From assembly GCA_000002445.1 (NCBI GenBank), contig CM000207.1, forward strand, positions 2,880,001 through 2,944,000: a DNA stretch of 64,000 nt, read 5' to 3'. The stretch comes from Trypanosoma brucei (lineage: Eukaryota). Both the position numbers and the translations under genes were made by a program. Below, piece after piece: positions 20,996 to 54,204 of this stretch. The stretch's first letter is position 1. The number at the start of each line of letters is the position of its first letter. Below the pieces are notes generated by a model. It was not told where the DNA came from, did no database searches, and saw nothing but the letters and a program-made list of their open reading frames with translations.

Positions 20996-23167
20996 CTAAC
21001 TAATATCCGTAAAATCGACAAAAACTAAAAAAAAAGAATGTTGCTTATTAGTACACGCATTTCATACACTAACATCATACTTTACACCTATAGACTACTA
21101 TTATATTAAAATTTTGTATTTTTAATATCTTTATCATTTACACATCTTCATAAATTTCATGAAATTAGCAAAAAATTCACTAGAAGTTTCAAAAGACCAC
21201 ACAACTCATAAAGACAATTATAATCAGAAATAATTATTATTTACAAGGAACCTGTAGTCTTTGAAAGCATTATTTTCCTATTTTCAATTGCTAGTGCAAT
21301 CTCTCTGTTGGTTATATTTGCATTTTGAAGAAGTTTGCGTCCCTTCAGTTCCTGTTTGTATTGCTGTTTTCTATATTGCTTTCGTGTTAGATTTGCAGTT
21401 TTTTCCATCTTTCTCACTTTTTTAAAATTTTTTTCGTGCCTTCGTGAGAGTTTCCCCACACACACACTGGCGCGGCCATCAGCCATCACCGTAGAGCCCT
21501 GAGATGCTATCGGTCTGGCGACTGTGGCAGAGTCTTCCTTTTTATTCAGCCTAACACACTCTCTATAATTTTTGTTGTAGCTCCGCAGTTGAACGGAATA
21601 CAGCAGATGGGGCGAGAAGCCCCCCACACCGGACTCTCCAAAAGGTGTCAATTAGCAATCCTTTTGTTTTGATTTTTGTTATTCGTTTATTATTCTCTCT
21701 CCCTCTTTCTGTTTCTGTTGCTTGTTGATTGCATACCCCCTCTGTCTCTGAGGGTGTCTGGACTATTCCTGCGTCCGGTGCTTTTCCTGCTAGCTCCACT
21801 CTCGGCAATAAGGGGGAAAGTTGCAGAAAGGAGAGTGGGTTGTATAACTGTTACATTAGGGGAGGACTTCACATGCGGCCGGTTCCGTTCAACCGCAATG
21901 AGAAATTGCGCCAGTCTTTTAGAGAATAATACATCCTGCACACACACACCTTCTACCGCAAACCTGACACGTAACTCCTTCAAACCGGGGCAGCTCATCA
22001 AGTGCAGCGACGTTTCTTCGCAGTCGCCGCGTTGGCTGGTAACAGCGCGCTCTACCTTCATACTGTGCATCTTATTTTGATGTAAGGTGAGGCCAGTTTT
22101 GCTAGCACACTGCCTTCCGCATGTCAGGCACATCAACATGGATGTGTTTGTATGTGGGGAATCAGTGACACACAATTTTGTGCTTTTGCTGCATTAAAGC
22201 TCGACTCTCTCACCTTTATGGAAAGCCTTACAGTGTCGGATGAGGGAGTCCCTGCAACTGAGCACTTTTTGGCACACACCACACTGCTCCTCGCCTTTCC
22301 CCGGGACGTCAACGTTTCCTTCACGGGCACGCTTACGAGGGAATTGCACCACCACCACGGTACCGTCCTCCGTCACTATGCTCTTATGTTTGAATTTCTT
22401 GTGTAGTGACAGAGAAGAGCGTGTACCGAAGCTCGCCTCGCACAGGTCACATTATAACGGCAGCTTCCGTGTATCCTGAGGGGCTGGCGCTGCTGGGGCT
22501 CTACCATTTCCTTGCAATGAGTCCTCGTTCTCTCGCCCCCTTTTCATGCGGCAACTACCGCTGCCTATGCCATGTATTGTTCTAAGGTGGTGTAATAGTC
22601 GGCCTGGCACTGCGAATTTGGAGTCACAGAGGGTACAATGAAGCACCTGCGGTCTCATCGAGACTCGTGTACTCGATGGTAGAGGAACGATCGCCACCAC
22701 TGGAGGGGGCTTCGGGGAGATATCCACTGCAGGTCTTGCATCGCCGTATTTGATCCTCCAGAGGGCATCAGCTCGCACAAAGCCGTGTTTGTTTACCATA
22801 TGCGTTACAGCACTCGAGCGTCATTGGTATGTGGCATCACATTCCGTACATTTGATCGGTTCGGAGGGTTTCTGAAGAGTGCGTGTCGCAACAGTTGGGA
22901 CCGTTTGTATTGTTGGTCCTATCGCTGCATGTTGCGGGTTACACCATCGGCACTGTGGAGGCACACTCGGGTTGATCTTTCGCAACATCCATCCATAGTG
23001 CCTTGAAAACCCAACCCGAAAGCGTGCCACTGTTGTTTCTTCTTCCCTCGTCAGTTCTTCTTTATGTTTTGTTGGAAAGTGGTTGCCGTGATACCAAACC
23101 TATGAGTGTTCTCATGGACTTCTTCCGACCTAAGCACTCGCTTCGCATAAGCAATGATGTCGGGGAT

Positions 23168-53523: not shown

Positions 53524-54204
53524 CTCGCGTGTGCGTTAGCGTCTGCACCGATGAGCTGGGCACCGTCAGTCGTCAGAAGCGTATCTATGTCAGTTGCCGT
53601 GAAAGTGTGTTTTGGTGGGATGTATGCCGACGTGACACTAGCGCCGTTCCACGTGCAATGTGAATTGTTGCATGCACTTGTTCAATGCGACCAACAACGA
53701 GTCTACCGGTATAGACTGGCATGTGCTACCTCACTAGTATTGATACACCACCTCATTTGCAGTTACGAGCTATTCTGTGATTTTGGTAGCCAGCAACGCT
53801 AAAGCAAGCCGCCTCTCCAGGCGTCATCCTTGTCTCGCTCAACAGACAAAAGGCGATCCGCTCATCAACAAGGGTTTTGTGGAGTGCTAATCTCTTTCCT
53901 TGAGATAGCCCGGCGCAGTTCCACTGCATCCCGCGCAACGACGGGCCGGGATTCTCTTTCACATCACCGGACAGCAGCATCTTAGTGCGGATGATACTGC
54001 TGATGGCACGCTGGCACGTGCCCAGGGACCGACAAATGAAAGACGGTGTCCCAGCAAGACGCTGCTGATCCCTGTGCTGTATAATGCCGTAGCCGGAGCA
54101 CAGCAGTGTTCCCCATGAAAGGAACGCTGCTGGTTCTTGGCTTCCCCCGATGATACGGGGTACTGGACCCTGGCACCACGTTGAGGTGGCCGGCATCGCC
54201 AGGG

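Follow-up and report, generated by a model that had tools for sequence, protein, structure and literature searches.

Two full-length ingi elements in a silent VSG array

The window (here the whole 64-kb stretch of Trypanosoma brucei brucei TREU927 DNA that we analysed) contains two full-length but defective ingi elements on the minus strand, which we called by BLAST and MAFFT comparison with each other and with four reference ingi copies, reading the ends directly from the sequence. ingi-1 (21418..26672; 5' end at 26672, A-rich tail ending at 21418) and ingi-2 (48950..54204; 5' end at 54204, A12 tail ending at 48950) are each 5,255 bp long and lie in direct orientation with their starts approximately 27,532 bp apart. 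Both possess the canonical ingi 5' end (CCCTGGCGATGCCGG...) and open with the conserved 76-79-bp 5' signature (CCCTGGCGATGCCGGCC...), which aligns base for base with the four reference copies, and both close with a tail (AAAAAAATTTTAAAAAA in ingi-1, A12 in ingi-2), giving the approximately 5.2 kb plus A-rich tail that is expected of ingi. Identity to the reference ingi copies over the full length implies that each element would also have the RIME halves of about 250 bp at its two ends. HDV-like ribozymes have been reported at ingi 5' ends; an Rfam scan of the whole window, including these 5' ends, returned zero families at the gathering threshold.

Active ingi copies carry one ORF of approximately 1,657 aa for an AP-endonuclease, a reverse transcriptase (RT), an RNase H, and a C2H2 zinc finger. 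The endonuclease, RT, RNase H, and zinc-finger regions are all recognisable by Pfam here (RVT_1, RNase_H, and Exo_endo_phos_2 in ingi-1; the same three and zf-C2H2 in ingi-2), but the single long ORF is broken in both copies, which makes them defective members rather than autonomous copies. Each retains a 940-aa ORF that ends at the same stop (23168-25990 in ingi-1 and 50701-53523 in ingi-2), and the 2A-like motif reads DVEENPGP in ingi-1 versus DVKENPGP in ingi-2. A preliminary description of this DNA had reported two minus-strand elements of about 5.25 kb with the canonical 5' end and A-rich tail, 27.5 kb apart in direct orientation, with a common 940-aa ORF and these two motif variants, and our coordinates, BLAST results, and direct reading agree with it on each of these points. 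The elements thus resemble Tbingi of the ingi4 subclade in length (5.25 kb), 79-bp 5' signature, A-rich tail, DVxxNPGP 2A-like motif, coding regions (endonuclease, RT, RNase H, and C2H2 zinc finger), and 95-97% identity to T. b. equiperdum copies, and they differ from it in their broken ORF and in the absence of the defining 12-bp target-site duplication.

Sequences flanking each element

Directly upstream of ingi-1 is a plus-strand VSG C-terminal-domain pseudogene fragment (26673..27178) that contains stops and runs antisense to the element. It matches Pfam Trypan_glycop_C (E = 1.1e-9, profile 13-101 of 104), aligns with an intact VSG tail by tblastn, and holds a degenerate copy of the VSG 3'-UTR 16-mer at 27163-27178, which bears out the earlier reading of this flank as a plus-strand VSG 3' fragment. 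On the other side, directly after the A-tail, is a second VSG C-terminal-domain fragment on the minus strand (21172..21417; Trypan_glycop_C, E = 2.3e-5, 25.2 bits against a cut-off of 21.4, profile 22-93 of 104), followed beyond 21172 by a 70-bp-repeat-like stretch (about 20890-20990, judged by eye only) and a VSG-like ORF at 17824-19152. ingi-1 therefore has a VSG C-terminal fragment on either side, each on a different strand and facing away from the element, and because both are outward-facing 3' fragments its flanks cannot have been contiguous.

The 5' flank of ingi-2 (54205..55054, minus strand) comprises the first approximately 290 codons of a frameshifted B-type VSG pseudogene, in sense with the element and cut exactly at its 5' end (55054->54205 by tblastn with residues 1-290 of P0141). 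A direct Pfam search of this fragment gave no match, and its VSG identity rests on its homologues: HMMER against representative proteins yielded eight matches (seven proteins of approximately 370-505 aa and a 131-aa fragment, P0139), all eight of which are VSG_B by Pfam, in keeping with the earlier call of a minus-strand VSG 5' part. The same junction recurs in an independent T. equiperdum assembly (L007) in a block that is only 87.5% identical, which indicates that the junction is real and old. The 3' flank (48233..48949, minus strand) is a pseudogene of a conserved hypothetical gene of chromosome 1 (P0135, 273 aa); it is without the first approximately 105 nt, is frameshifted, and is 92% identical to P0135. 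The ORF of this pseudogene corresponds exactly to the annotated TREU927 protein EAN77431.1 (126 aa) and is identical to P0136, for which an exact look-up gave no record. DNA homology to the P0135-like gene begins exactly where the ingi-2 tail ends, and a complete, ingi-free version of that gene is present on chromosome 1 in three subspecies. Since ingi-2 lies between codon ~290 of a VSG and nt ~105 of a gene unrelated to it, its flanks cannot have been contiguous either.

The flanks of ingi-1 and ingi-2 are unrelated to each other, as the preliminary description had it, and a tandem or segmental duplication carrying both copies was rejected because no homology links their flanks. When the flanks were compared by tblastn with the VSGs of the window itself, only the C-terminal tails aligned informatively. 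Pseudogenes of the RHS (retrotransposon hot spot) type carry in-frame ingi/RIME insertions, and the present locus resembles them in having ingi interrupt a gene in a subtelomeric region; however, it is VSGs and one small hypothetical gene that are interrupted here, and we rejected an RHS identity for the flanks, in which no RHS similarity was found.

Central VSG block, DIRE, and polarity switches

Between the elements, the central VSG block (26673..43950, plus strand) contains genes, pseudogenes, and fragments with Pfam matches to VSG_B, Trypan_glycop, and Trypan_glycop_C, including an intact 536-aa B-type VSG (37678-39288, plus strand), plus-strand 3'-UTR 16-mers at 27163, 30247, 39343, 40416, and 43197, and repeat units that are inverted in orientation. 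Searching public assemblies for an exact match to this intact VSG returned no record, and a chimeric protein search for orthologous loci of other strains with three VSGs of the window gave no match at E <= 1e-30. A plus-strand VSG C-terminal fragment (43717-43899) directly precedes a hitherto unnoticed degenerate ingi-related element (DIRE; 43952..45069 or beyond, plus strand), whose 79-bp 5' signature starts at 43952 (local alignment at 43952-44033) and which tblastn with residues 2-366 of an intact ingi protein matched at 29-58% identity with stops present. Homologous DIRE adjoin a VSG in L003 and L004.

The DIRE is part of a larger paralogous block (43952..48951, minus strand), consisting of the P0135-like gene and its downstream sequence, that matches a chromosome-1 region by the RNA-polymerase subunit-2 gene, with 87-93% DNA identity to T. 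b. equiperdum CM010672.1 (L004 10105-15934) and T. b. gambiense FN554964.1 (L005); the synteny comparison covered these two loci and L007. The plus-to-minus switch lies 1-5 kb left of ingi-2, near 45-48 kb, between the plus-strand DIRE and the 48233-48949 pseudogene. VSG polarity had been described as flipping exactly at both elements, which holds at ingi-1 only, as both flanks of ingi-2 are minus-sense and no flip occurs there. The VSG / DIRE / hypothetical-gene arrangement is also found on chromosome 1, where no ingi occupies the counterpart of the ingi-2 site, and because the same switch occurs there, ingi-2 did not create it; judging from these alignments, the convergent switch is ancestral and derives from the older arrangement.

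ingi and DIRE are known to occupy strand-switch domains, with chromosome 1 possessing two ingi and one DIRE (PMC1868937). The present locus likewise has two full-length ingi and one DIRE at coding-strand changes, and its 43952-48951 block is paralogous to a chromosome-1 block with an adjoining DIRE and ingi, which may be the domain of that study. Unlike those domains, it consists of silent VSG pseudogenes rather than a core directional gene cluster, and no AT-rich centromeric repeat array was seen.

Target-site duplications and insertion-site consensus

ingi insertions create a 12-bp target-site duplication (PMC2323293, PMC3820030). We compared the flanking 12-mers of ingi-1 (5', GCTTCTGCTGCT or TGCTTCTGCTGC; 3', GTGAGAAAGATG) and ingi-2 (5', TACAACTACGGC; 3', (AA)TTGGTGTTGCTC) in all four pairings and recognised no duplication in any of them; the preliminary description had seen none by eye at either insertion. 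Pairing each element with itself gave 5/12 and 6/12 matches, within the null distribution, and a control copy (L002) shows an 11/12 duplication. A cross-paired match had been proposed as the mark of flank exchange between the two elements; that test was negative, with 8/12 for the ingi-1 5' flank versus the ingi-2 3' flank (null P about 0.10, and out of register) and 6/12 for the other pairing. The absent duplication bears on insertion history and not on element identity. The ingi at the corresponding locus on chromosome 1, in a long-read T. b. equiperdum assembly, is also without a duplication and without flank continuity, which suggests a general post-insertion process.

The consensus upstream of ingi/RIME insertions is AxxxxxxxTxxxGTxGGxTxxx^xTxTxxTxxxxx (PMC3820030). 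With a 1-nt shift, the 5' flank of ingi-1 matches it at 7/10 positions (P about 0.015; controls, 6-8/10), which suggests that this flank is a genuine original insertion site. Neither the 5' flank of ingi-2 (4/10) nor, on chromosome 1, the 'empty site' that corresponds to its 3' junction (5/10) matches significantly.

Shared and private lesions

Two inactivating lesions are common to the elements, as the preliminary description had indicated for their ORFs. One is a +GA insertion (CACGCGAGTTGG) after element nt 679 (25992..25993 in ingi-1 and 53525-53526 in ingi-2, minus strand), which is present only in this pair and absent from the L001, L002, L003, and L004 ingi in five- and six-copy alignments. 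The resulting frameshift had been placed between the endonuclease and RT domains; by Pfam, it instead falls within the endonuclease domain, near codon 224, and the 944-aa ORF still holds Exo_endo_phos_2 profile positions 45-116. The other, W1164* (TGG>TAG; 23168..23170 in ingi-1 and 50701-50703 in ingi-2, minus strand), terminates the 940-aa ORF and was identified by codon-by-codon comparison with the intact 1,656-aa ORF of L002/P0129. Tryptophan is kept at codon 1164 in the eight other T. b. equiperdum/gambiense ingi proteins that span it. Among the six copies compared, these two lesions and 21-28 substitutions are exclusive to the ingi-1/ingi-2 pair.

The full alignment proposed in that description gave no sign of recent conversion. 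ingi-1 and ingi-2 are 96.3% identical (~3.7% divergence), the same as either copy versus unrelated T. b. equiperdum ingi (95.3-96.3%), and their longest identical tract is 197 nt, within random expectation (mean 148, 95th percentile 204); both observations speak against the two having exchanged sequence recently. Their differences go beyond the point substitutions described earlier and comprise 195 mismatches and nine indel events, with private lesions in ingi-1 (one frameshift and three stops, four in total) and ingi-2 (five frameshifts and three stops, eight in total). Searching regional divergence along each element for a crossover point revealed no clear mosaic and no affinity switch. As read from the alignments, the shared lesions would reflect old common descent rather than local homogenisation.

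Origin of the junctions

Taken with the anatomy, lesions, absent duplications, flank discontinuity, and paralogy observed at this locus, recombination within the elements, which we infer from its products only, is most likely the origin of the junctions. We consider it reasonably probable that ingi-1 and ingi-2 are old, non-functional hybrids that formed when they recombined ectopically with ingi copies located outside the window. Because the 2-bp frameshift, a single stop codon, and 21-28 substitutions are common to them, both copies would descend from one defective progenitor lineage in the silent VSG array, with each later gaining its private lesions as they diverged by ~3.7%. Homologous (ectopic) ingi-ingi exchange would leave the ends intact and bring together a 5' flank and a 3' flank that come from two different insertions, and breakpoints exactly at intact element termini are as expected from exchange inside ingi copies. 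For ingi-1, the partner was probably inverted, giving an inversion-type product with outward VSG 3' fragments and a divergent VSG strand switch, a geometry that would be one of the two products when oppositely oriented VSG-inserted ingi copies recombine. For ingi-2, a probably direct partner may have led to a deletion or unequal exchange that left the VSG 5' part beside the 5'-truncated chromosome-1 gene copy without altering polarity at the element. The two would not have been each other's partners, and no recombination partner or reciprocal product was found within the 64 kb. Recombination-mediated rearrangements between ingi/RIME copies have been reported in T. brucei chromosome comparisons (PMC2854126), and subtelomeres recombine ectopically (PMC3467770). 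Our case is like the former in its breakpoints at intact termini, its flanks from unrelated contexts, and its place in a subtelomeric VSG array, a site of frequent ectopic recombination (PMC3467770), and unlike it (PMC2854126) in that the event is deduced rather than reconstructed.

The preliminary description had preferred ectopic ingi recombination to independent insertions, a general idea that stands, and had envisaged that ingi-1 and ingi-2 exchanged flanks or underwent gene conversion with each other, or that the intervening 27 kb had undergone insertion or inversion, specific scenarios that do not. The unique lesions and substitutions of the pair, their direct orientation 27.5 kb apart, and the 8/12 cross match are on the side of such a mutual exchange, but that match is out of register at a null P about 0.10 and the other cross pairing reached only 6/12, their identity and longest tract are those of unrelated copies, and the central block is oriented relative to the P0135-like gene as on chromosome 1. 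Direct repeats cannot invert the sequence between them by exchanging with each other, and the outer flanks, which correspond to VSG codon ~290 and to profile position 22 of the C-terminal domain, do not join up into a single VSG, so that the central 27 kb is no simple ingi-bounded insertion; we regard this model as largely refuted and very unlikely. Two simple independent insertions whose 12-bp duplications decayed by point mutation would suit elements with about 3.7% pairwise divergence and many lesions, but at 4-12% divergence at least 10/12 matches are expected versus the 5/12 and 6/12 observed and, above all, the genes on either side do not add up to a single interrupted sequence, which leaves this explanation barely credible.

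Alternatively, each element could be a single retrotransposition that rearranged its target by target-site deletion, such that its flanks were never contiguous. Target-site deletion on integration is known for mammalian L1; we know of no description of insertion-associated deletion for ingi. The missing duplications, the same-orientation flanks of ingi-2 (which fit one insertion deleting the DNA between), and the 7/10 match of the ingi-1 5' flank to the endonuclease consensus all accord with this, but the opposite strands of the ingi-1 flanks call for an inversion besides a deletion, full length and perfect 5' ends are more typical of canonical integration with exchange later, and the chromosome-1 ingi suggests a general post-insertion process. 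On balance we find it unlikely. The junctions could also be artefacts in which contigs were misjoined through ~96%-identical 5-kb ingi repeats, with flanks drawn from different real elements. In favour of this, ingi copies combine length with high similarity, assembly of VSG arrays is difficult (PMC2854126), and the T. equiperdum contig (L007) ends 46 nt into ingi; mis-assembly across the 5-kb repeats is possible for three of the four junction pairings. Against this, with 4% divergence each element offers some 200 sites that tell the copies apart, and neither copy changes affinity abruptly along its length, the shared and private lesions forming a coherent pattern throughout. In addition, the ingi-2 5' junction is independently confirmed and the long-read chromosome-1 ingi likewise is without a duplication, so we consider a misjoin quite improbable.

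Implications for silent VSG arrays

Ectopic ingi recombination with partners outside the window, our preferred reading, introduces no new principle, as earlier work has documented both ingi-mediated recombination and the presence of ingi/DIRE at strand switches; the observation is genuine but an ordinary one. A more speculative possibility, to which we give little credence, is that the ingi-2-to-ingi-1 interval (ingi, 5'-truncated chromosome-1 gene copy, DIRE, antisense VSG array, ingi) is an ingi-bounded composite module copied from a chromosome-1-like strand-switch region. If true, sister ingi pairs would be able to mobilise or duplicate tens of kb, taking core-gene fragments along and founding new VSG sub-arrays that run in the opposite direction. 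The practical value of this case from the TREU927 reference genome is as a worked example, in which the kind of event can be read from the flanking gene fragments (resembling an inversion at ingi-1 and a deletion at ingi-2), and which also cautions that a common lesion does not imply local gene conversion. More broadly, silent VSG arrays are the antigen archive behind trypanosome immune evasion, and ingi copies represent portable homology for rearranging them.

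Ingi-1 and ingi-2 belong to one lineage

Self-comparison revealed a single long non-simple repeat in the window, pairing 21418-26672 with 48956-54204. Direct reading of the ends on the minus strand showed that the ingi/RIME 5' signature, CCCTGGCGATGCCGGCCAC..., opens both copies, which close with A-rich tails ending at 21418 in ingi-1 (21418-26672) and at 48950 in ingi-2 (48950-54204), such that each measures exactly 5,255 bp given these limits. Pfam profiles for reverse transcriptase, RNase H, the C-terminal part of the endonuclease and a C2H2 finger were found on the minus strand of both, and identity to four T. 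b. equiperdum ingi copies (L001-L004), of which that in L002 holds an intact 1,656-aa ORF (P0129), was 95-97%. Based on the 5' signature, tails, domains and identity to reference ingi, these are genuine full-length elements, and self-comparison, end reading, Pfam and the reference copies agree with the preliminary description of a directly oriented pair about 27.5 kb apart.

Codon-by-codon comparison with the intact ingi ORF revealed that the copies do share ORF lesions, as had been proposed, namely a GA insertion after element nt 679 (25992-25993 in ingi-1 and 53525-53526 in ingi-2, minus strand) and W1164* (TGG>TAG; 23168-23170 and 50701-50703, minus strand). Both are absent from all four reference copies, and the tryptophan is kept in eight other subspecies proteins spanning codon 1164. 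The shared frameshift, previously placed between the endonuclease and reverse-transcriptase domains, sits inside the endonuclease domain, since the 944-aa ORF that follows it keeps Exo_endo_phos_2 profile positions 45-116. Substitutions common to the pair number 28 in a five-copy alignment (next-best pair 12) and 21 in the first 3.9 kb of a six-copy alignment (next-best pair 9). Because the two lesions and these substitutions are specific to the pair among the copies compared, ingi-1 and ingi-2 are members of one defective sub-lineage, and the most likely source of the shared lesions is a defective progenitor common to both. Copying could have been through retrotransposition in trans, the route used by RIME, or through an old DNA-level copy; about 3% private change has accumulated since.

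In a global alignment, the copies differ by 195 mismatches and nine indel events (96.3% identity, gaps ignored), so the pair is no closer than either copy is to unrelated reference copies (95.3-96.3%); compared with one another, the reference copies give 95.9-96.8%. Singleton substitutions number 85 in ingi-1 and 76 in ingi-2, and private lesions comprise one 1-nt deletion and three stops in ingi-1 and five small indels and three stops in ingi-2. The DVEENPGP versus DVKENPGP difference noted earlier is correct; the claim that point substitutions alone separate the copies fails on the indels and private lesions. Because identity is not raised, the longest identical tract (197 nt) falls within random placement of the same number of differences (mean 148, 95th percentile 204), and divergence by region showed no near-identity block, there is no trace of a recent duplication or gene-conversion event linking the copies.

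A separate ingi pair on T. b. equiperdum chromosome 1 (CM010672.1) lies tail to tail, 1.65 kb apart (L002 2993-8244; L002 9896-10971 / L004 16930-20822), with 98.7% identity over 3.9 kb where the other pairs compared gave 95.4-97.3%. One member is intact (1,656-aa ORF) with a near-perfect duplication; the other has no duplication and abuts an antisense VSG fragment.

Target sites and flanks

The duplication expected for ingi is 12 bp (PMC2323293, PMC3820030). Matching the 12 nt that precede each element against the 12 nt that follow each tail, small offsets permitted, we recovered no recognisable duplication in any of the four flank pairings, in keeping with the preliminary description: 5' against 3' flank, the best match was 5/12 within ingi-1, 6/12 within ingi-2, 8/12 for ingi-1 against ingi-2 and 6/12 for ingi-2 against ingi-1, and 10% of trials with random window 30-mers scored 8/12 or better. 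The control ingi of L002 carries TTCTCC(T)TCACA on both sides. Against the published insertion-site consensus, the ingi-1 5' flank scores 7/10 once shifted by 1 nt (P about 0.015; 6-8/10 in controls), and on this fit it resembles an authentic original site of insertion; scores at both ingi-2 junctions were not significant.

Directly 5' of ingi-1, a plus-strand VSG C-terminal-domain fragment starts at 26673 (Trypan_glycop_C, E = 1.1e-9), followed by a degenerate VSG 3'-UTR 16-mer at 27163, and directly 3' of the tail a minus-strand fragment of the same domain runs from 21417 downward (E = 2.3e-5, above the curated cut-off). Ingi-1 sits between two VSG 3' ends directed away from it, which are therefore not two halves of one interrupted gene. 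Beyond the 3'-flank fragment come a 70-bp-repeat-like stretch, recognised by eye, and a VSG-like ORF at 17824-19152. This ORF and another at 13795-14925 (both minus) are long and possess a signal peptide, a helical N-terminal region and a Cys-rich tail; neither matched a Pfam VSG profile at E <= 0.01, and they are probably divergent A-type VSG pseudogenes without a GPI signal.

At ingi-2, a direct Pfam search of the 5' flank (54270-54749) gave no match. A HMMER search of 1.84 billion representatives found eight proteins, all VSG_B by Pfam, seven of 370-505 aa and the eighth (P0139) a 131-aa fragment, and tblastn mapped residues 1-290 of one homologue to 55054->54205. Given these homologues and this placement, the flank appears to hold the 5'-most ~290 codons of a B-type VSG that is frameshifted and oriented like the ingi, such that VSG coding sequence abuts both ingi 5' ends, as had been described. 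The same junction was found in an independent T. equiperdum contig (L007), with the last 44 flank bases identical, and because the 2.9-kb shared block is just 87.5% identical overall, the junction is real and old. At the ingi 5' end after these 44 nt, L007 2886-2931 reads CAACGGCGATGCCTGCCGCC and window 54159-54204 reads CCCTGGCGATGCCGGCCACC. The L007 flank is more diverged than ingi copies among themselves (~96%), a possible hint that ingi copies have been homogenised. Frameshifted ORFs at 55328-56288 (minus), which separate the truncated VSG from its neighbour and have a DDD-containing motif (…YIMKADDDIFMRVPLYLQYL…), gave no Pfam match at E <= 0.01 and resemble a putative glycosyltransferase pseudogene; this block is kept in L007 at 87.5%.

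The ingi-2 3' flank is not VSG. It has 92% protein identity to a 273-aa conserved hypothetical protein (P0135), whose sequence is identical in TREU927, DAL972 and T. b. equiperdum and whose gene adjoins the RNA-polymerase second-largest-subunit gene in both fetched chromosome-1 loci (L004, T. b. equiperdum; L005, T. b. gambiense DAL972). The window copy is frameshifted and 5'-truncated, and its ORF is identical to an annotated TREU927 protein (EAN77431.1 / XP_827761.1, 126 aa), which marks the window as T. b. brucei TREU927 reference sequence. Chromosome-1 DNA homology (87-93%) begins exactly at the ingi tail end, at gene nt ~105, and runs from 48951 down to 43952, making this 5-kb block (against L004 10105-15934 and L005) a relative of the region beside the RNA-polymerase subunit-2 gene. 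The ingi adjoining the chromosome-1 block shows no duplication and no flank continuity either.

Strand polarity

At the far end of the chromosome-1-like block lies a plus-strand degenerate ingi-related element (DIRE) missed in the preliminary description, at 43952-45069 and possibly further, recognised by a degenerate 79-bp signature starting at 43952 and by tblastn alignment of residues 2-366 of the intact ingi protein to 43963-45069 (29-58% identity, stops present). A plus-strand VSG C-terminal fragment (43717-43899) immediately precedes it. The order VSG 3' end, DIRE, hypothetical gene on the opposite strand also occurs on T. b. equiperdum chromosome 1 (L004), and the VSG-then-DIRE pair in L003. 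The plus-to-minus change of coding strand thus falls in the stretch that separates the DIRE from the P0135-like pseudogene (roughly 45.1-48.2 kb), and this convergent switch is inherited from an older arrangement without ingi at the ingi-2 position. VSGs are on the minus strand at 1-21.4 kb and the plus strand at 26.7-43.95 kb, the DIRE is plus from 43.95 kb to at least 45.07 kb, and the pseudogene, ingi-2 and VSGs at 48.2-64 kb are minus. The exact polarity flip claimed for both elements thus stands for ingi-1 and not for ingi-2, which has minus-sense flanks on both sides.

Very long (TAA)n tracts upstream of VSGs (32623-33473, plus, 850 bp; 36069-36803, plus, 735 bp; 60004-60417, 414 bp) flip orientation with VSG polarity: in the centre the plus strand reads ATA/TAA, and at the right, as at 6880-6917, it reads TTA. 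Short degenerate telomere-like repeats at 39491-39585 and 43361-43378 (plus; TAGTTAGGT four times, TTAGGC/TTAGGG seven times; TTAGGGTTAGGGTTAGAG) follow the 3'-UTR 16-mers of two plus-strand VSGs, including the sole intact VSG, at a distance of ~135-150 bp, and TTAGGGTTAGGG-like matches number 12 against 3.1 in shuffles. The cassettes may once have been telomeric, with these repeats as a remnant.

Probable recombination through ingi

Breakpoints match intact element termini to the base and the flanks come from unrelated contexts, which is the expected product of homologous exchange inside two ingi copies and supports the general idea, already proposed, that ingi-mediated ectopic recombination shaped the region. 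Working through the geometry by inference, two oppositely oriented ingi, each within a VSG of a unidirectional array, would on recombining invert the interval and leave one element between two VSG 5' parts and another with an antisense VSG 3' part as 5' flank and a sense VSG 3' part as 3' flank; ingi-1 has exactly the configuration of this second product. Exchange between directly oriented ingi, one in a VSG and one in a P0135-like gene, would delete or exchange the interval and join a VSG 5' part, ingi and the 3' part of the gene, the configuration seen at ingi-2. An insertion-associated deletion would fit ingi-2 equally well, mis-assembly through the ingi repeats is formally conceivable, and the window holds no recombination partner or reciprocal product.

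The specific events proposed between ingi-1 and ingi-2 themselves do not survive. The cross-pairing test for flank exchange is negative (8/12 and 6/12), recombination of two direct repeats can produce no inversion of what lies between, insertion of the central block is at odds with non-contiguous outer flanks (VSG codon ~290 versus C-terminal-domain profile position 22), gene conversion left no tract, and the central block keeps the ancestral orientation relative to the P0135-like gene.

Subtelomeric VSG arrays are known to harbour ingi elements (PMC3553974), recombination of ingi and RIME has caused rearrangements that distinguish T. brucei genomes (PMC2854126), subtelomeres undergo ectopic recombination (PMC3467770), and strand-switch domains hold ingi and DIRE, chromosome 1 among them with 'two full-length INGI ... 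closely linked to a DIRE' (PMC1868937). Because the window is reference-genome sequence and this literature already covers ingi recombination, location and strand switches, our finding, though correct, is an ordinary instance of something already described. Perhaps mildly useful to the specialist are the inversion-type signature at ingi-1, the 5-kb paralogue of the chromosome-1 gene-plus-DIRE block inside a VSG array, and the lesions specific to the ingi-1/ingi-2 pair.
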